From: an uncultured Holophagales bacterium
Lineage (GTDB): Bacteria > Acidobacteriota > Thermoanaerobaculia > Multivoradales > UBA5704
Reading direction: 5' to 3'
Length of the DNA stretch: 64,000 nucleotides
Assembly: GCA_963842525.1 (NCBI GenBank)
Contig: CAWJGT010000003.1
Span: 1,216,001-1,280,000, forward strand
Shown here: in pieces, positions 1-7,797 of the stretch
Numbering within the stretch: position 1 is the stretch's first letter
How the letters are laid out: each line of letters begins with the position of its first letter
Notes under the pieces: generated by a model
What the model saw: the letters and a program-made list of their open reading frames with translations, nothing else
Told to the model about the DNA's origin: nothing
Databases searched by the model: none
Made by a program: the position numbers and the translations under genes

Positions 1-933
1 TCCCGGCTCGAGGCTCGCGTCGTCCGTGCCGAAGCTCATGTTGATGACCTTGGCGCCCAGGTCCACTGCCATTTTCATGGCCATGTCAAGGTCGCTGATG
101 GCGCCGATGCCGACGGCGTTCGTCTTGCCGGGGAAGCGCGCCGCGCCGAGCCCGCGCAACGGCAGGATGCAGGCCTCGCCGGCCAGGCCGGGCGGCATCG
201 CCACGCCGAGCGCGCCGATGATGCCGGCGCAGCCCATGCCATGGCCGACGAAACGGTCCACCGGGCTCGCATCCGCCCGCGACGAGTCGCCCAGGAGCTC
301 GAGCCCGAGCGCCACGTCCGAGCGGCCGAGCTGCACGGTGTCGTAGCCGGCGCGCAGCCGCCCCGCCAGCTCGGGATGGTCCGGCGCCACACCGCTGTCC
401 ACCACCGCAACGATCACCGCGGGATCGCCCTGCTCGTAGGCGAGCGCCTCCGCCGCGTGCACCTGCTGCCAGGGCGCCCATTCCAGCTCGTTCTCGGCGC
501 CGGCCGACAGCTCGAAGGGGGTGACGCAGCAATAGTTGGGCGAAGCGGCCTCCACGATGGCGACCTGGCTGAGCGAGTCCACCAGCGGCTCGATCGCGGT
601 GCCCGCGGGCACGTCGATGCGGAAGGTGCGGGCGAGGCCGAAGATCTGCTCGCGGTCGTCGAAGCCCTGATGCCGCTCGCCGGGCCGGCCGAGGCTCGCG
701 GCTGCCGCGTGCACCCGCGCCACCCGCAGGCCGCCGGCGAAGTGGCGCACGATGCGGTCCACCACGCCGCCGTCCAGCTTTTCTCTGGCGGGCAGGTACC
801 CGGGGCGCACGTCCAGGGCCGTCGGGATCGCTTCGGGAGCCTCGCCCAGCGCGAGCTTCAGCACCACGCTGCCCGGCAGGCAGTAGGCGCGTCCGTGGGT
901 GGCCCAGGGCATGGCGAGCGCGCTGGATTTCAT
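1..933 (-). CDS. S8 family subtilisin-like serine peptidase (3' end runs off window)
   Basis: Manual translation from ATG 933 (MKSSALAMPW...) gives VAVVDSG, GHGMGCAGII and VINMSFG subtilase motifs. ATGA overlap with the upstream stop. Absent from the ORF track because it has no stop in the window. Confidence 0.9.
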   Translation of the reverse strand, partial: MKSSALAMPWATHGRAYCLPGSVVLKLALGEAPEAIPTALDVRPGYLPAREKLDGGVVDRIVRHFAGGLRVARVHAAAASLGRPGERHQGFDDREQIFGLARTFRIDVPAGTAIEPLVDSLSQVAIVEAASPNYCCVTPFELSAGAENELEWAPWQQVHAAEALAYEQGDPAVIVAVVDSGVAPDHPELAGRLRAGYDTVQLGRSDVALGLELLGDSSRADASPVDRFVGHGMGCAGIIGALGVAMPPGLAGEACILPLRGLGAARFPGKTNAVGIGAISDLDMAMKMAVDLGAKVINMSFGTDDASLEPG

Positions 934-1691
934 AACGCACCTCCTGGGTCGCCCGACCCTCTGGTGCCATTGCCGCCGTTGCCGCCGCGCCAGAAAGGGC
1001 GCAGATCGAAGGCCATGGCGGCGGCCCGCTGCGGTGCGGGCTCGACGACGAGCTCGCCGGCCATCTGGTGCGCCAGCGGCGCGATCACCAGCTCGCGCTC
1101 GTCGGCGCGCACCACGCTCACGGGCTCTCCTCCCACCGTGACGCGCGGCAGGCCCTCCTTCATCAGGTTCCGGCCGCGGATGCGCACCAGGTTGGGCAGG
1201 CCCGCGGCCTCCTCGTGCGACGGCGGCACCGGCAGCACGTGCTCCACCAGCGGCGCCGAGGCGCGCTCCAGGGCGTTGCGCAGGCGGTCCACCGGCAGGT
1301 TGGTGACGCGCCCCACGGTGCGCGAATCCCCCCGCTCTTCGATCTCGCGCAGCTTCGACACGGTGCGCACGCCCACCCATTCGAGCCGGCGCCGCTCGTC
1401 CTCTGAGAGGTCGTCCTTGAGCTCGTCGATCGATCTCTCCTGGGGGTCTTCCGAGAAGGCGATGGCGTTCTCCTCGATCATCGGCCGCGTGATGGCGGCG
1501 AATTCGAGATGGAAGACGCTCGCTTCCTTGTCGCTGGCGCTCGCCGGCCGGATGCGGATCTCCGAGCGGGCAAACTCCACGTGGGCGCGCAGGTCGAGCT
1601 TGATGTCACGGATGGCGAAAGTGAGCGGAAGGTCGAGGTTGCGCGCCTTGACCGCCATCGCCGTCTGGGCGTTGTCGAGCTGGCTCTGCAC
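930..1691 (-). CDS. Hypothetical protein: N-terminal helix+strand module, HhH/SAM-like middle, C-terminal IPT/TIG-like domain; true start probably ~1737
   Basis: 253-aa ORF. C-terminus LVRIRGRNL...RVTVGGEPVSVVRADERELVIAP resembles IPT/TIG. The frame stays open upstream to the TGA at 1734-1736. Confidence 0.7.
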   Translation of the reverse strand: MQSQLDNAQTAMAVKARNLDLPLTFAIRDIKLDLRAHVEFARSEIRIRPASASDKEASVFHLEFAAITRPMIEENAIAFSEDPQERSIDELKDDLSEDERRRLEWVGVRTVSKLREIEERGDSRTVGRVTNLPVDRLRNALERASAPLVEHVLPVPPSHEEAAGLPNLVRIRGRNLMKEGLPRVTVGGEPVSVVRADERELVIAPLAHQMAGELVVEPAPQRAAAMAFDLRPFWRGGNGGNGTRGSGDPGGAL

Positions 1692-1733
1692 CGCCTGGAT
1701 GAAGTGCTCCAGAGGCAGGGTGGAGTCAGAAGC

Positions 1734-1982
1734 TCACGAGGCCTCCCTTTTCGCCCAGACGACGTGCAGGCGAGCCGGCGGCGTGTCGAAGACGGTGCGG
1801 GTGATGGTGCGCGGCACGTCGCCGAGCAGCTCGATCTCGTCCCCCGCGCGATGCCACGCGACCTCGATGGGAAGGTCGACCTCAATGGCCTGCACCAGGA
1901 GGCCCGGCGCCGCGGCCAGGGCGTCCAACGTGCCCGCGGCCACCTCGGCGAGCATGTTGGCGAGGGTGCGGCGAGCGGTCAT
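1734..1982 (-). CDS. Small hypothetical protein (82 aa, MTARRTLANMLAEV...)
   Basis: ATG at 1982 overlaps the TGA of the upstream gene (ATGA); operon context. Confidence 0.75.
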   Translation of the reverse strand: MTARRTLANMLAEVAAGTLDALAAAPGLLVQAIEVDLPIEVAWHRAGDEIELLGDVPRTITRTVFDTPPARLHVVWAKREAS

Positions 1983-3043
1983 CGCGTGCCTCCGGCGGGC
2001 GGTGCGGCAGGTGCCGGCGGGGTGGCAGGCGCCGTTTCGGGTGCTGCCGGCGGTGCTGCCGGTCGTGGTGCGGTGATACTGGCCGCGGCCCGCGCGTGCC
2101 GTTCCAGCAGGGTGCGCTTGGCTTCGTCGACGAAGCGGTCGAGGGGGACCGTCTCGCTGGCGAAGTTGATCTTCACCTCGCCGAAGAGCTCGGCCTTGAG
2201 CTCGCTGTCGGTCTGTGCGTTGACGCCCACCGTGGACACCTTGGTGGAGGGCAGCGAAAACGTGCGGCTGCCGCGCCGGCCCCACTCGCTGCCGCTACCG
2301 CCCGGATCGTCCGACACCGCATAGTCCACCTTGGCGTGGTCGGCCGCCGCGGCGCGAAAGCGCAGCCGTGCGCCGATGCTGCCGTCCTTCACCACGACGC
2401 GGTGCATGCCGAGCAGGACCATGGTCGACAGGGTCTGCAGCCGGTTGCGCGCCACGCGCTCGCGTGCCCGCGGCACGAGCTGCTCTTCGACGAGCTCGGG
2501 CGTCAGCTCCTCGCCGGCGAGCCCGAAGTCGGCCAGCCATTCGGGCGGCGGGGGAGCTTCTTCGTCTTCGGCGGCCTGCTTGCGAGGCAGGACGCGCGGG
2601 GACTCCGCGTCCCGCAGCAGGACGAGGTCGTGCGGATATTGCTCCACCAGCCAATCGCGAGCCTGGTTGAGCGAAACGTTTTCCTGGGTAAACTGATCGA
2701 TCGGCTTGGCGACCGCCGCCACGAGGTCGGCAAAGCTTTCCATCTGGCGGATGGCGGAATCGACGATCGCGTCGAAAGTACCGTGCACCAGCGAGGCGAC
2801 GAACTCGGGAAAATCCAATTCATCAGACAGCGCCCCCGCGCGCCGGCCGATCGTCTCGGTCGCCGCCTCCCGCTTGGAGCCCGAACCGTTCCCGTCAAAG
2901 GTTGGCTCCGGTGAGGCCGGCTCGGGCTCGTCGATCTCCCGCCCGAAGGCATCGCGCGCCAGCGACTGCGCAACAGGCGCCGCCTCGGCCCGGCGCACGG
3001 CCGGCGGCGGCGGAGGCAGTCTCTTGTCGTTCCCGTGGGCCAC
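1979..3043 (-). CDS. Conserved hypothetical, mostly helical protein (DFPEFVASLVHGTFDAIVDSAIRQM motif) with beta-rich C-terminus
   Basis: 354-aa ORF with GGAG RBS upstream; coupled to the next gene. Confidence 0.8.
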   Translation of the reverse strand: MAHGNDKRLPPPPPAVRRAEAAPVAQSLARDAFGREIDEPEPASPEPTFDGNGSGSKREAATETIGRRAGALSDELDFPEFVASLVHGTFDAIVDSAIRQMESFADLVAAVAKPIDQFTQENVSLNQARDWLVEQYPHDLVLLRDAESPRVLPRKQAAEDEEAPPPPEWLADFGLAGEELTPELVEEQLVPRARERVARNRLQTLSTMVLLGMHRVVVKDGSIGARLRFRAAAADHAKVDYAVSDDPGGSGSEWGRRGSRTFSLPSTKVSTVGVNAQTDSELKAELFGEVKINFASETVPLDRFVDEAKRTLLERHARAAASITAPRPAAPPAAPETAPATPPAPAAPPAGGTR

Positions 3044-3064
3044 GTTCGGCTCCGTTCCTTCGGA

Positions 3065-6000
3065 TCAGTGAACCAACGCCGTCTGCCACCTGCTGCGGCG
3101 CTCGAGCTGTCCATCACCGTAAAGGGTCAATTCGGTAATTCCCAACGGCGTAGAGCCGTCCGGCGCCGTGAAGCGGTACTCGATCTGCACCTTCAGCGTC
3201 GAGATCCCCGCACCGTTCGTGCCCGGCGGCACGGGCTCGTCCAGGATGCGGGCGTGCACGTCGAGCGTGACGCTGTTGGCATTGCGAGCCTCGCCCGCGG
3301 CGATGCGGATGTTGCCGACGCCGCCCGATTCGAACTCCCAATCGACCGTCAGCGGCAGGCTGGCGGGACCGTCGCTTCCTTCCACATAGGGCCAGTCGCT
3401 CAGCCGCACCGTTGGCGTAATGCAGGACGCTGCGCCCGGCGCCACTCCCGGCGGCCGTTTGAAGCCGCGCAACTGGTCGAGCTGCCAGCGGATGTTGCCG
3501 GCCGCTCCCTCCACGCGCTCGATCGCAGCGCCTGGGAACAGGGGAGGTACGATGGCGCCGGTCGCCTCGTCGAGAGCGACGGCGCGGCGTATCTGCTGGT
3601 GGAGAGGCGCCCCGTTGCTCGGCGCCGGCGCGGCCTGCGCGAGCGCCAGCGACTGAGCGGCGGTTGCCTGCACGGCTTCGAAGACCTGGATCGGCAACAC
3701 GCCGAGCCCCACGCCCAGGCCGAAGGTGACGCCCTGGAAGCGCCACGAGGTATCGAACAACGCCTGGGCGCTGACCGAAACGCCCAGATCCACTTCCACC
3801 CCGGTCGCCCAACTGATGCCGGAGAAGCTCTCGATGCCGCCGGAGACAATGGTGAACTGGAGCTCCACCGACGCGCTTGCGAGGATGAGGCCGGTGCGAA
3901 TGTCGAACTGGCCGTAGAAGCCGATCTCGTCGTCGGGCGCGAAGATGATGCCCGCGCCCCCTCCGCCGCCGACCAGGATGAAGCCGACGTTCGCCGTCGG
4001 GCCGATGGCGATGCTCACGTTGTAGCGGTTCGCCGCCGCGCGCACCATCGCGACCAGCGCCGACGCGGGGAACAGCGCGGCGAGCGCTACCTCCCTTTCC
4101 CACCACGACGCCTCGTCCGTCGGCGGAAAGCGAGCCGGACGGCGCTCGGTCCCCAGGGCGCGCACTACGCCCCGGCCTTGTGGCAGTGTCGGCGCGGCGC
4201 TCGCGGCGCTGGCCAGCGGCGCCGAAGGACCGAGAAATGCCTGGAGGTCCTCGGCAGGCACCCCCTGAGAGAGCAGGCGGGTTACGAGCTCCACTAGGCT
4301 GGGGCCGATCTCGCCGGCCCGGGCGATGACCTGCTCGGCGCTCGCCGCGCTGAAGGCGCGAGCGCTCTGGACCACCTGCACCGCGGGGAGGCTGGCCGCC
4401 ATAGCATAACCGCGTGGCGTGGTCTGACGGTTGGGCGTGTAGCGACGGGCGTACGGGATACCATTCTCATCGCTGCCGGCGTGCGAAATCTGCACATTCA
4501 CCGCCCCTGTGGGCGAAACGGTCACGCGGTCCTCGTACTCGCGCACGAAGCTCTCCCACGTCAGGATGTAGCGGCTGCCCCTATTGTGGGTTCCCAGATT
4601 GGGACCGAGCGTACCGATCGTAGGAGCCGGACCAAAATCCCAGGGATCGGCGATGCGCACAAAGGTGTCGGAGCCGTCCGGCGCGCCGTCGCTGTACATG
4701 CCGGTGACGACGATGGCATGGCCGTTACCGGATCGCGCTATGCCGATCCACAGCGGGCCGCACGTTTCCAGCAGATTGCGAAAGGCGTCGAGGGAGTAGG
4801 ACTGGGGCTCTTCATACGCGAGCCCGATATCGATTGCAAACTGCTGCCGCTCGCTGGCATAGAAATTGGTTGTGGTGGTACGACCCTGGCTCACGGCAAC
4901 GTATTCGGGCGTCACCGTTCGATGATCCCGCCAGCCCAGAACCATGGCCGCCGCGGTAGCCCAGCAGGAATTGCCGGTCGGCTGGTTAATGAGATTCACA
5001 TCCCAGTTGATCGAGAAGGACTCGTTTGCCAGCGGACGCGCGACGCTGCGGCTGGCTGCCATGGCATAACCGGCTGGTGCGGTCTGACGGTTTGGCACAT
5101 GGCTGCCGATGCCGCCCGCGTGCAGGATCTGCACATTCACCGCGCCCGTGGGCGAAACGCTGGAGCGGTTCTGGTACTCGCGCACGAAAGTGTCCCATGT
5201 CAGGATGTAGCGGCTACCCGTGTTGTGTGTCCTAAGATTGGGGCCGAGGGTGCCAACCGGAGCCGGACCGAAGTCCCAGGGATCGGTGATGCGGACGTAA
5301 GTGTCGGAACCGTCAGGCGCGCCGTCGCTGTACATGCCGGTGACGACGACGACATGGCCGCCGCGGCCTCGCTGTACGCTCACCCAGAGCGGCCCGCACC
5401 TTTCGAGCATGTCGCGAAAGCCCTCGATGCTATAGGACTTGGGCGCCTCGTAGATGAGCCCGACCTCCTCGGCGAACAGCCTCCGATCGTCGCGATCCAG
5501 CCCATTCTGCAGTGTGCGGCCGGCTACTTGACCAATGTATTGGGGGTCGACCGACGCATCGTCTCGCCAACCGAGCACCATCGCTGCGGCGGTGGCCCAG
5601 CAAGACATATCGGTCGGCTGGTTGATGGGCTGCACGCCGTCCCAGTTGATCGAGAAAGACTCATTCGCCAGCGCCATGGGCGCCGGCGTGCTCGCGGAAA
5701 CTGGCGGCGGAGGAGGCGCCAGCGGACCGAAGCCGTCGTCGTAAGCCGGCGCGGCGGCCGGCGCGTGGCCATTACCGCCGGGGGCCGCGGGCGCCGGTCT
5801 CATGGCGCCTGCCGCAGGCTCCTGACCGGGAGCAGCGGCGTCGCCGGCCCACTCCAGCGCGCTCTTGCCATCGGCACCGTAGCCTGCCGCGCGCTGCTGG
5901 CGGCTCGGCACCACCCTCACCCGTTTGAGGCTCCGTCCGGTCAAACCCTGGAGCGAGATGTACGGGCTTCCCTCGCTCGGCATCACCGCCACCTGCGGCG

Positions 6001-6319
6001 CCGTGCCGTTGCGCTCCGGCATGGTGGCGAGGCCGAAATAGAGGCGGCCCTGGCCGATGAAGCGTGCCAGCACCTCGGGCGGTACGACATAGATCGCCTC
6101 GCCGCGCGGCACCAGCAGCGGCCCGCCGGCGCGGCTGGAATAGAAGTTGCCGCCGGTGCGCTCCGCCTTCTTGTCAGGGCGGAACAAGGAAGGGTCCGTC
6201 GCGACCGCCACCTCGGCGCGCTGGGGCGATCCGTCCGTACGGATCGTGAAACCGAGCATCGGAAACCGGTCGCTGACCTCGAGCCGGTTGGGACGAATCT
6301 GAGCGGCCATGACCATCAC
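3065..6319 (-). CDS. Large modular protein with two tandem papain-like (peptidase C70/AvrRpt2-like) domains
   Basis: QPTDMSCWATAAAMV...GHVVVVTG...ITDPW and QPTGNSCWATAAAMV...GHAIVVTG...IADPW give two Cys-His-Asp triads. Start overlaps the upstream stop. Confidence 0.85.
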   Translation of the reverse strand: MMVMAAQIRPNRLEVSDRFPMLGFTIRTDGSPQRAEVAVATDPSLFRPDKKAERTGGNFYSSRAGGPLLVPRGEAIYVVPPEVLARFIGQGRLYFGLATMPERNGTAPQVAVMPSEGSPYISLQGLTGRSLKRVRVVPSRQQRAAGYGADGKSALEWAGDAAAPGQEPAAGAMRPAPAAPGGNGHAPAAAPAYDDGFGPLAPPPPPVSASTPAPMALANESFSINWDGVQPINQPTDMSCWATAAAMVLGWRDDASVDPQYIGQVAGRTLQNGLDRDDRRLFAEEVGLIYEAPKSYSIEGFRDMLERCGPLWVSVQRGRGGHVVVVTGMYSDGAPDGSDTYVRITDPWDFGPAPVGTLGPNLRTHNTGSRYILTWDTFVREYQNRSSVSPTGAVNVQILHAGGIGSHVPNRQTAPAGYAMAASRSVARPLANESFSINWDVNLINQPTGNSCWATAAAMVLGWRDHRTVTPEYVAVSQGRTTTTNFYASERQQFAIDIGLAYEEPQSYSLDAFRNLLETCGPLWIGIARSGNGHAIVVTGMYSDGAPDGSDTFVRIADPWDFGPAPTIGTLGPNLGTHNRGSRYILTWESFVREYEDRVTVSPTGAVNVQISHAGSDENGIPYARRYTPNRQTTPRGYAMAASLPAVQVVQSARAFSAASAEQVIARAGEIGPSLVELVTRLLSQGVPAEDLQAFLGPSAPLASAASAAPTLPQGRGVVRALGTERRPARFPPTDEASWWEREVALAALFPASALVAMVRAAANRYNVSIAIGPTANVGFILVGGGGGAGIIFAPDDEIGFYGQFDIRTGLILASASVELQFTIVSGGIESFSGISWATGVEVDLGVSVSAQALFDTSWRFQGVTFGLGVGLGVLPIQVFEAVQATAAQSLALAQAAPAPSNGAPLHQQIRRAVALDEATGAIVPPLFPGAAIERVEGAAGNIRWQLDQLRGFKRPPGVAPGAASCITPTVRLSDWPYVEGSDGPASLPLTVDWEFESGGVGNIRIAAGEARNANSVTLDVHARILDEPVPPGTNGAGISTLKVQIEYRFTAPDGSTPLGITELTLYGDGQLERRSRWQTALVH
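4400..5675 (-). repeat. Intragenic tandem duplication (~630 bp x2) encoding the two protease domains
   Basis: Near-identical stretches, e.g. ccgtcgctgtacatgccggtgacgacga at ~4686 and ~5322; both copies run ANESFSINWD...GYAMAAS. Confidence 0.9.
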
Positions 6320-6696
6320 CTCTTCCGGGTTGAGAGTTGGACGGGCACCATGGAAAGATCGCTCGCGTCATCGCGGCGGACGTCCACGGCCCGGCGTTCG
6401 AAATCGGGCAGCGAGCGCAGGACCGTCGCGAGCGGATCCGGCGCGTCCGCGACGTCAGTGATCAGTCCGTTGTCGGTCTCGTACTGGCCTACCGCGTTGT
6501 GCAGCATCGTGGCGAACAGCTTGGCGTGGGTCGGCCCCATCGCAATGCGGGTGTGCAGCATGACGTTCGACACCTCCGGCTGGAGCTGGCCGAAATCGAT
6601 CAGGAATTCGTAGGGGTTGTGCCCCACCTCGAAATAGTTGGTATAGCGGGCCAGCGGCGCGCGCGCGGAGCGGGTGGATGGACGTTTGATCGGCAT
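6316..6696 (-). CDS. DUF3467-like small protein
   Basis: ATG 6696 with GAGG RBS; YTNYFEVGHNPYEFLIDFGQ...RIAMGPTHAK pattern typical of DUF3467. Confidence 0.7.
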   Translation of the reverse strand: MPIKRPSTRSARAPLARYTNYFEVGHNPYEFLIDFGQLQPEVSNVMLHTRIAMGPTHAKLFATMLHNAVGQYETDNGLITDVADAPDPLATVLRSLPDFERRAVDVRRDDASDLSMVPVQLSTRKR

Positions 6697-6728
6697 GCTC
6701 GGCTCGTGTCCTCGCCGCCTCCAGAGGG

Positions 6729-6744
6729 GCAAGCCGCATGCCAG
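6729..6744 (-). promoter_or_regulatory. sigma54 (-24/-12) promoter
   Basis: Minus strand CTGGCATGCGGCTTGC matches TGGCA-N6-TTGC with GG-N10-GC spacing, 33 bp upstream of ATG 6696. Confidence 0.85.
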
Positions 6745-6799
6745 CCGGGCGGCCGACGCCAACCGCTTGTTGCAATTGAGTTTCCGGCGCGCGGGGCGG

Positions 6800-6868
6800 C
6801 ACGCGGCGTCACGCGGCGTCACGCGAAGGTGTCGCACAGGGACGAGCAGAGGGTTACAGGTGTGACAC
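6800..6868. promoter_or_regulatory. Candidate upstream activator sequences for the adjacent bEBP
   Basis: Inverted repeat GTGTCGCAC (6829-6837) / GTGTGACAC (6860-6868) and a 10-bp tandem cacgcggcgt x2.5 (6800-6825), 55-125 bp upstream of -24. Confidence 0.45.
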
Positions 6869-7797
6869 TACGCCGACCGATCGATATGGTATTTCGCCAG
6901 CTTGCGGTAGAGGGTCATCCGCGACCAGTTCAAGCTCTTGGCCGCCTCCGCCTTGTTCCATTTCGTCTGTTCGAGCGCTCCCAGGAGCTGGTCCCGTTCA
7001 CTCGGCGCGCTGGCCCGATAGCGCAGGAACATGTTTTGGAATACCGGCGGCAGGTCGGCAAGGCCGATGCCTCCGCTGGGCGGATCGATGAAGATCGCTT
7101 CCACCAGGTTGCGCAGCTCGCGCACGTTGCCCGGCCAATCATGGGCCAGCAGGCAGCGGATCAGCTCGCCGTCGGGTGCGCCGACCGCGCGGCGGTCGCG
7201 GAGGTTCAATTCCTCGGTGGCATGGCGGAACAGCAGCGGGATGTCTTCCGGGCGTTCTTTCAGCGCCGGCAGATCCAGCCGCGCCACGTTGAGCCGGTAA
7301 AAGAGGTCGGTCCGAAAGCCACCGCTCTGCATCAGGGATTCGAGCGGCAGGTTGGTGGCGGCGATCACGCGCAGGTCCACGGCAACGGTCCGTCCCGCGC
7401 CCACCGGCGTGACCTCGTGGGTCTCCAGCACGCGCAGCAGCTTCGGCTGGGCGTGCAGTCTCATCTCGCCGATCTCGTCGAGGAAGAGCGTTCCGCCGTC
7501 CGCCTGGACCACATGCCCCTTGCAGGCGCTCACCGCTCCTGTGAACGCGCCGCGTTCATGGCCGAAGAGCTCCGACTCGATCAGGCTGTCCGGCAACGCC
7601 GCGCAGTTGACGGCGACGAATGGGCGGCGGGCGCGCGGGCCCAATGCATGGAGCGTCCGCGCGACCCGTTCCTTACCCGTCCCGGTGGCACCCGTGATCA
7701 GAACGGTCGCCGGCGAGCGGGCGACCTTCGGCAGATAGGCCCGCAGCGCGGCCATTGCCGGACTGATTCCCACGACCATCTCCACAAGATCGGCCAT
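6868..7797 (-). CDS. sigma54-dependent transcriptional activator (AAA+ plus Fis HTH, no sensory domain)
   Basis: GATGTGKE Walker A, ESELFGHERGAFTGA, LFLDEIGE, WPGNVREL, C-terminal HTH. Confidence 0.95.
   Translation of the reverse strand: MADLVEMVVGISPAMAALRAYLPKVARSPATVLITGATGTGKERVARTLHALGPRARRPFVAVNCAALPDSLIESELFGHERGAFTGAVSACKGHVVQADGGTLFLDEIGEMRLHAQPKLLRVLETHEVTPVGAGRTVAVDLRVIAATNLPLESLMQSGGFRTDLFYRLNVARLDLPALKERPEDIPLLFRHATEELNLRDRRAVGAPDGELIRCLLAHDWPGNVRELRNLVEAIFIDPPSGGIGLADLPPVFQNMFLRYRASAPSERDQLLGALEQTKWNKAEAAKSLNWSRMTLYRKLAKYHIDRSA

Follow-up and report, generated by a model that had tools for sequence, protein, structure and literature searches.

INTRODUCTION

In bacterial gasdermin-protease operons, a pore former, which is lipidated in some cases, is licensed by an adjacent protease. 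Phage-type lysis cassettes, like protein release that depends on lysis, rely on a holin, an endolysin, and a spanin. At the level of transcription, PspF is a sensor-less sigma-54 activator, and PspA is a small protein encoded first in its operon. Here we describe an operon that resembles each of these systems in part. It lies at one end of a 64-kb stretch of DNA (C3:1216001-1280000, hereafter called the window) from an uncultured Holophagales bacterium. The genes first noticed there, at positions 1 to 7797 of the window, had been described from the sequence alone as a self-contained, sigma-54-driven operon for several proteases, interpreted as a cytoplasmic proteolytic cascade with its own scaffold or polymer components, that could not be assigned to a named system. 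We found that they are the regulatory head and the first half of a conserved cassette shared by distant bacteria. As judged by searches of Pfam, NCBIfam, PADLOC, PHROGs, the PDB, and the literature, the cassette matches no named system, in agreement with the original prediction. The full-text literature searched, which did not extend to subscription journals and supplements, contained nothing on it.

RESULTS

Extent and conservation of the cassette

We examined the window together with 16 kb beyond its start (locus L002). The whole cassette spans about 16.6 kb of the minus strand and consists of one activator gene followed by 12 co-oriented genes, 13 genes in all. The enhancer-binding protein, the promoter, and the six co-oriented genes originally reported were all confirmed on that strand by open reading frame (ORF) and Pfam analyses. 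However, those six genes are not the whole operon, as six more co-oriented genes follow beyond the window edge over about 8.8 kb, to about C3:1207849. They code, in order, for a family B protein of 573 amino acids (aa), a prenyltransferase of 348 aa, family A proteins of 435 and 406 aa, a family B protein of about 312 aa, and a last family A protein of about 440 aa (B573, A435, A406, B312, and A440 below). Four-base overlaps join the DUF3467 and 1084-aa genes, the 354- and 82-aa genes, and the 253-aa and S8 genes, and the coding strand has no terminator-like site over 13.5 kb of the operon.

The genomic neighborhoods of homologs were then compared in contigs taken from one genome per species. 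Relatives of A435 were encoded by 122 of the 132 candidate stretches, and 80 loci were kept, against which 15 local proteins were run by tblastn. The homologs co-occur in these loci, which come from at least six phyla and have eleven genes in one fixed order on one strand, namely, the genes for the giant hydrolase (found in 56 of the 80 loci), A354 (63), the 82-aa protein (31), the 253-aa protein (66), the S8 subtilase (72), B573 (78), the prenyltransferase (80), A435 (80), A406 (75), B312 (72), and A440 (70). Where a gene was missed, the contig or flank usually ends there. The loci stem from Alpha-, Beta-, and Gammaproteobacteria, a Desulfobulbus metagenome-assembled genome (MAG), a cyanobacterium, Acidobacteriota, and a Chloroflexia MAG, and the core order spans Pseudomonadota, Acidobacteriota, Cyanobacteriota, Chloroflexota, and Thermodesulfobacteriota. 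Family A orthologs are 45 to 88% identical across classes. A435 has more than 1784 relatives, the 120 best of which are 62 to 88% identical; among those listed, the ones that bear a name are all called hypothetical. When 1.84 billion representatives were searched with a family A profile, it retrieved 2178 clusters at 50% identity.

The cassette has a patchy distribution among distant bacteria, and it appears to be horizontally spread. It was present in none of 150 other genomes from the host's own order. In a tree of 81 A435 proteins, two clades had 100% support each in the Shimodaira-Hasegawa-like approximate likelihood ratio test, the window belonging to a clade of 37 rows, and the class labels needed 15 changes on this tree versus a minimum of 7. 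Part of the apparent spread may be due to mis-binned MAG contigs. Two loci, L055 from a Chitinophaga pinensis MAG and L066 from a Hydrogenophaga MAG, nest in a group of Lysobacteraceae, where their end branches measure 0.008 and 0.064, respectively, and are likely to be such contigs. A search of plasmids returned a single record with the cassette, pBPJTT of Burkholderia pyrrocinia, an 880-kb replicon that carries a complete, annotated copy. The Prokaryotic Genome Annotation Pipeline labels its genes as a sigma-54 regulator, a DUF3467 protein, an 'N-acetylmuramoyl-L-alanine amidase' of 1254 aa, an S8 protease, and nine hypothetical proteins. Directly after the cassette on pBPJTT (L090:19403-24000) lie genes for a 1151-aa adenylate/guanylate cyclase domain protein and a patatin-like phospholipase. 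Among the sequencing runs searched for this stretch, one soil metagenome DNA run contains a small share (0.13), and no RNA run is listed.

Predicted sigma-54 control and its replacement in other loci

The activator gene (positions 6868 to 7797, minus strand) encodes a 309-aa bacterial enhancer-binding protein (bEBP) with Sigma54_activat (PF00158, E 5.3e-64), AAA_lid_14, and HTH_8 domains, the last one a Fis-type helix-turn-helix (HTH). No sensor or receiver domain was detected with Pfam, and no NCBIfam equivalog scored above its cut-off. The GAFTGA motif is present in the translation, as 'ERGAFTGA'. A predicted -24/-12 promoter, TGGCATGCGGCTTGC, follows at positions 6729 to 6743 on the minus strand, ahead of the gene for a DUF3467 protein (positions 6316 to 6696, minus strand; 126 aa counted from an inner ATG; PF11950, E 3.6e-13).

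Elsewhere in the 64-kb window, TGGCAY-N5-TTGC has no other match; the expected number is 0.2, and at least one match arises in 18 of 100 shuffles of the window. We extended 24 loci upstream to inspect their regulatory heads. A full-length activator ortholog (55 to 73% identity) and DUF3467 precede the giant protein in 10 of them, and in 7 of these 10 (L086, L087, L088, L091, L092, L095, and L096), the exact motif stands between the two genes. The match in the window is therefore more than a chance occurrence, since the same motif recurs at the same place in genomes with an orthologous activator. The exact motif also precedes DUF3467 in L038, and one additional orthologous locus has TGGCAC-N5-CTGC between the activator and DUF3467 genes. 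The genome of the host contains rpoN (PF04552, 221 bits, contig 34). With its predicted promoter and its own activator, both conserved in orthologous loci, the cassette appears to be a self-contained sigma-54-gated operon, and this part of the original prediction stands. Between the activator stop codon and the -24 element, at about positions 6795 to 6830 on the minus strand, GCGTGACGCC occurs twice in tandem; this direct repeat is a candidate upstream activator site.

The remaining 14 upstream regions have other heads: 6 contain a SARP regulator, 1 a LuxR-type response regulator, 2 a more distant sensor-less activator, and 5 nothing that was recognized. The SARP regulators, with Trans_reg_C and BTAD domains, are found at L089:9734-10624, L098:1249-2187, L103:2636-3712, L108:3430-4404, L109:1240-2160, and L110:1618-2880, and the LuxR-type regulator (L099:1491-2192) belongs to the cyanobacterial copy. 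In SARP-type loci, the position immediately upstream of the giant hydrolase is occupied not by DUF3467 but by a conserved protein of roughly 95 aa that has no match in Pfam; this protein is 58 to 71% identical among L102:700-1161, L104:642-977, and L108:4598-4972. In the loci examined, DUF3467 was found only alongside the orthologous activator (both present in 11 loci, and DUF3467 by itself in none). All loci with the activator and DUF3467 fall in the window's clade of the A435 tree and all SARP loci in the other. The regulator is thus modular, with a sigma-54 activator and DUF3467 in one clade and SARP or LuxR types in the other. Since all the DUF3467-activator loci belong to one major clade, their co-occurrence may go back to one ancestral event and would then not be independent evidence of a partnership between the two proteins.

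A polymorphic giant hydrolase

The second gene of the operon (positions 3065 to 6319, minus strand) codes for a protein of 1084 aa in which Pfam detects Peptidase_C70 in two stretches (E 2.9e-56). It comprises a conserved N-terminal domain (residues 1 to about 215), two C70 modules (about 216 to 420 and about 430 to 640), and a conserved C-terminal domain. Both C70 repeats keep the Cys, His, and Asp residues, in SCWATAAAM, GH(A/V)(I/V)VVTG, and DPWD, and they match Peptidase_C39_2 in Pfam as well. As C70 is classed with true proteinases near C39 in a review (PMC10318531), the term 'double protease' is appropriate for the allele found in the window.

The family as a whole is more diverse. The N-terminal 216 residues are present as a single copy in all 20 genomes tested, in open frames of 1005 to 1855 aa. 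We counted modules in 44 orthologs, most of which lack their 5' end because of the flank limit, and found C70 in 36, Amidase_2 in 17, Trypsin_2 in 13, and C92 in 8, with DUF3238 (7), CHAP (2), and SLT (1) being rarer; three short frames had no Pfam match at all. The hydrolase modules are framed by conserved ends, and their order varies between genomes. The 1084-aa protein is therefore predicted to be one allele of a polymorphic family of giant protein- and murein-cutting enzymes.

Hydropathy analysis revealed a glycine-rich hydrophobic stretch at residues 743 to 883 of this protein, the only place in the cassette with transmembrane-like segments that no folded domain explains. None of the cassette products has an N-terminal hydrophobic segment, in keeping with the originally reported lack of obvious signal peptides. 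Apart from the hydrolase, the products, which are mostly acidic, show no N-terminal signal-like segment and no clear membrane-spanning one. The murein hydrolase modules of the family, together with the hydrophobic stretch, point to the cell envelope rather than to cytoplasmic substrates as the probable site of action.

Subtilase and predicted aromatic prenyltransferase

The S8 subtilase gene occupies positions 1 to 933 (minus strand), which hold the first 311 of its 477 codons, and runs off the window, the full gene being located at C3:1215500-1216933. Its product is extended by about 165 residues at the N terminus and has a Peptidase_S8 domain (PF00082, E 8.7e-38) in which the Asp/His/Ser triad is intact (VVDSG, GHGMG, and GTSFAAP). 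As proposed originally, the cassette contains both S8 and C70 proteases, and in both, the catalytic residues are preserved.

The 348-aa protein encoded beyond the window has no Pfam family in this genome, where the gathering score of Trp_DMAT was not reached; weak Trp_DMAT matches were obtained for 31 of 49 members of its family (best E 2e-4). Its model (predicted local distance difference test [pLDDT] 91.8, predicted template modeling score 0.89) consists of five alpha-alpha-beta-beta units. Foldseek gave 123 matches at E <= 0.001, with CymD at E 1e-12 to 5e-12 and a template modeling score (TM) of 0.67 to 0.73, and with DMATS1, PriB, IptA, TleC, and FgaPT2 among the others; E values for CymD, DMATS1, PriB, and IptA ranged from 1e-12 to 1e-8. 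Judging from its modeled fold, we are confident that this protein has the fold of a DMATS-type (ABBA) aromatic prenyltransferase. The strand residues E59, R71, K145, Y147, Y148, E149, R187, Q192, R193, R313, Y325, and R327 are kept in 41 to 49 of the 49 members. They are candidate functional residues, and their conservation is compatible with diphosphate binding.

Paralogous families A and B and the small proteins

Family A comprises four paralogs of 354, 435, 406, and 440 aa that are 33 to 45% identical, with 33% between the 354- and 435-aa proteins. The first one, A354 (positions 1979 to 3043, minus strand), is called a 'hairpin protein' on the basis of the family model and has no Pfam match. 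In that model (pLDDT 75.9), N-terminal helices are followed by two long helices and three beta stretches of 28 to 35 residues. With the whole model, Foldseek found nothing at E <= 0.001 in the PDB or in the viral library, and the best VIA match had a Z score of 5.3 over 45 residues. The weak Foldseek rows were of a single kind, long-hairpin proteins that form rings or pores. At the end of the A435 core, a block of 37 residues is near-invariant in 22 orthologs. A complex prediction for A435 and A406 scored 0.06 against a mark of 0.32 and bears neither way on their association. An atlas lead (score 0.75) that related family A to DUF2589 was rejected, as hhalign gave a probability of 0.8% and an E value of 0.066 over 10 columns in a comparison built on five DUF2589 proteins; the 253-aa family likewise did not qualify (probability 0.3%). 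Three of 15 unusually long family A relatives (P0134, P0141, and P0146) carry a SAM (S-adenosylmethionine)-dependent methyltransferase domain at their C terminus and are either fusions or merged calls.

Family B consists of the 573- and 312-aa paralogs, which are helical and match each other at E 1e-23. No usable match was returned for B573 by the atlas search, and when profiles of family A, family B, the prenyltransferase, and the 253-aa family were run against PDB sequences, the rows obtained were all at chance level. The conserved small protein of 82 aa (positions 1734 to 1982, minus strand), identified by tblastn, was aligned for 28 members, among which one Pro is invariant and Arg, Leu, Pro, Phe, and Asp residues are nearly so. 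In the 253-aa protein (positions 930 to 1691, minus strand), a conserved N-terminal part precedes weak helix-hairpin-helix (HhH)-like and IPT/TIG signals. The HhH and IPT domains originally assigned to it thus have weak matches in the family, to DUF4332 in 8 and to TIG in 5 of 45 members, and nothing stronger was found.

At the far end of the operon, the last family A gene is continuous with a MaoC/RipB-type enoyl-CoA hydratase in a 668-aa frame (L002:7168-9174, that is, C3:1207168-1209174, outside the window). An 18-base tandem repeat of 5.6 copies (L002 7847-7947) bridges the two, and in an alternative frame, the family A gene acquires the family-typical Pro/Thr/Ala-rich tail followed by a stop codon. 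This suggests that the 668-aa frame reflects a frameshift, an assembly error, or a chance fusion. The downstream genes for the MaoC-type hydratase and a TPR protein were excluded from the cassette, as they were present in none of the 80 loci.

DISCUSSION

A possible envelope-breaching or lysis machine

We tentatively propose, with somewhat less than even confidence, that the cassette encodes a tightly gated envelope-breaching or lysis machine. Its genes would stay unexpressed until the activator fires, whereupon the proteins of families A and B would assemble into a membrane-active structure, which the subtilase might mature by cleavage and the prenyltransferase by addition of a lipid to an aromatic residue. 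With its two conserved terminal domains and the glycine-rich hydrophobic stretch holding it in place, the giant hydrolase would gain access through this assembly to the cell envelope, where its interchangeable peptidase and peptidoglycan hydrolase modules would cut protein and murein. In this genome, the enzyme load would consist of two C70 peptidases only. The outcome could be regulated self-lysis or release, or else an attack on neighboring bacteria. A fully specified version, in which four hairpin and two helical paralogs form a new kind of ATPase-free apparatus that is matured by the subtilase and by Trp/Tyr prenylation and opens a membrane for the modular hydrolase, for lysis or for killing neighbors, is doubtful as a whole. 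Aromatic prenylation of a protein is not a known feature of bacterial protein machines.

Several observations weigh against an envelope-directed machine. The allele of this genome has two C70 modules and no recognized murein hydrolase, and a review places C70 with true proteinases and not with murein amidases (PMC10318531). The searches of the cassette turned up neither an ATPase nor a holin, spanin, secretin, or signal peptide, and thus nothing that would account for the passage of a cytoplasmic hydrolase of 1000 to 1850 aa through the inner membrane. It is the length of the modeled strands that suggests a pore for family A, because no significant fold match emerged from the PDB, VIA, or viral searches. 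Similarly, the catalytic competence of the prenyltransferase is deduced from its conserved residues. An invariant loop Trp that had been considered as the prenyl acceptor was rejected, as the column contains W in 44, Y in 27, and F in 9 of 105 sequences.

The cytoplasmic proteolytic cascade of the original prediction is less likely than an envelope-breaching or lysis machine, given the murein modules of the hydrolase family and the glycine-rich hydrophobic stretch of the 1084-aa protein. Structural-looking proteins that could serve as scaffold or polymer components are present as anticipated, although the cascade to which they were assigned lacks support in that form. The suggestion of effector packaging is still compatible with the evidence.

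Alternative explanations

The patchy, horizontally spread distribution of the cassette is typical of conflict systems. Together with the position of a protease next to candidate pore formers and with weak matches of the S8 protein to anti-phage models (IetS/IteS, E 1e-7 and 4e-5; PADLOC 'subtilase', 1e-14), it raises the prospect of abortive infection or programmed death. In this scenario, which comes close to the original prediction, a stress or phage signal would lead the activator to switch on the proteases and hairpin proteins, these would kill the producer from within, and the hydrolase would only finish lysis. We consider this unlikely. Many defense systems are made constitutively and triggered posttranslationally, whereas this cassette is controlled through a dedicated transcription activator, and its core has no STAND, TIR, nuclease, or cyclase sensor. 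Moreover, no PADLOC system model matches its unknown proteins, and thirteen genes with four plus two paralogs would be a heavy investment for suicide.

The DMATS-type fold of the prenyltransferase also brings to mind a cluster for a prenylated peptide or protein akin to ribosomally synthesized and posttranslationally modified peptides (RiPPs), with the 82-aa or family A proteins as substrates, the S8 and C70/C39-like enzymes as leader peptidases, and the ABBA enzyme for tailoring. The match of the C70 modules to Peptidase_C39_2 and the methyltransferase domain of 3 of 15 long family A relatives would fit such a pathway. The S8 protein also matches the cyanobactin PatA/PatG model (TIGR03895, E 5e-25), but its 88.3 bits are far under the cut-off of 421. 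Proteins of 350 to 440 aa that are conserved to the degree seen in family A across classes are unlike precursors, murein hydrolase modules have no place in a pathway of this kind, and no transporter, cyclodehydratase, or core-peptide variability was seen, which makes this explanation very improbable. Equally hard to sustain is an intracellular structure or developmental module, in which families A and B would form a scaffold or particle and the hydrolase would remodel the cell's own wall during differentiation, for even though acidic products without membrane segments and a near-invariant 37-residue C-terminal block would suit a multi-contact structural protein, the carriers have no known developmental trait in common according to their organism titles, the polymorphic, shuffled enzyme load resembles that of weapons rather than of housekeeping systems, and the cassette is absent from close relatives of the host.

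Significance

Eight of the 12 structural genes, those for the 82-aa, 253-aa, family A, and family B proteins, belong to families that neither score above threshold in Pfam, NCBIfam, PADLOC, or PHROGs nor match any solved structure in the PDB by sequence. The four exceptions are those for DUF3467, the giant hydrolase, the S8 subtilase, and the prenyltransferase, the last one recognized by its fold only. If the cassette does encode an envelope-breaching or antibacterial machine, it would represent a new class of lysis or delivery system and a source of modular lytic enzymes, and it might also provide the first example of a machine of this kind in which a protein undergoes aromatic prenylation. 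A single regulator, be it the sensor-less activator or, in the sister clade, a SARP protein, is expected to turn on the entire cassette. Cultured, nonpathogenic, non-model carriers include Lysobacter sp. Root916, Andreprevotia chitinilytica DSM 18519, Sphingorhabdus buctiana, and Croceibacterium soli.

Comparison with known systems

The regulatory head is reminiscent of PspF and HrpS, as the activator has AAA+ and HTH domains only and a small protein is encoded first in the operon that it would activate. However, the activator scored 228 bits with the pspF model, whose cut-off is 443.55, and Pfam gives no sign that DUF3467 is related to PspA or HrpV.

Like the polymorphic effectors of type VI and type VII secretion, the giant hydrolase combines a conserved N-terminal domain with swappable modules that include amidase and CHAP domains. 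Among NCBIfam models, the S8 protein scores highest with the type VII secretion mycosin of ESX systems (TIGR03921), although at 150.5 bits versus a cut-off of 278.75. Unlike those secretion systems, the cassette has no sheath, tube, VgrG, EccC-type ATPase, membrane, or ESX core family. Phage lysis cassettes share with it the tight gating of expression and a signal-less murein hydrolase that must cross the inner membrane. They differ in that the hydrolase described here has 1000 to 1850 aa and several enzyme modules and is accompanied by ten more conserved genes, and in that no holin, spanin, or phage family was matched, PHROGs being empty for the unknown proteins of the cassette.

With gasdermin operons, the cassette has in common a protease beside proteins with predicted very long beta hairpins, a putative lipid-adding enzyme in the same operon, and a patchy, mobile distribution. 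In contrast to them, it has four hairpin and two helical paralogs rather than one gasdermin, neither Foldseek nor VIA returned a gasdermin when searched with the whole family A model, and it adds a giant hydrolase and sigma-54 control at the transcriptional level. Its lipid step would also be of a different nature, namely, aromatic prenylation by an ABBA enzyme. That enzyme shares with the DMATS-type ABBA enzymes the PT-barrel fold (TM 0.64 to 0.74), and within its own family, a Glu and several Arg/Lys and Tyr residues on the strands are conserved. In contrast, its sequence similarity to them is marginal, and it sits in a fixed 11-gene core rather than in an alkaloid or nonribosomal peptide synthetase cluster; its acceptor may be a protein.

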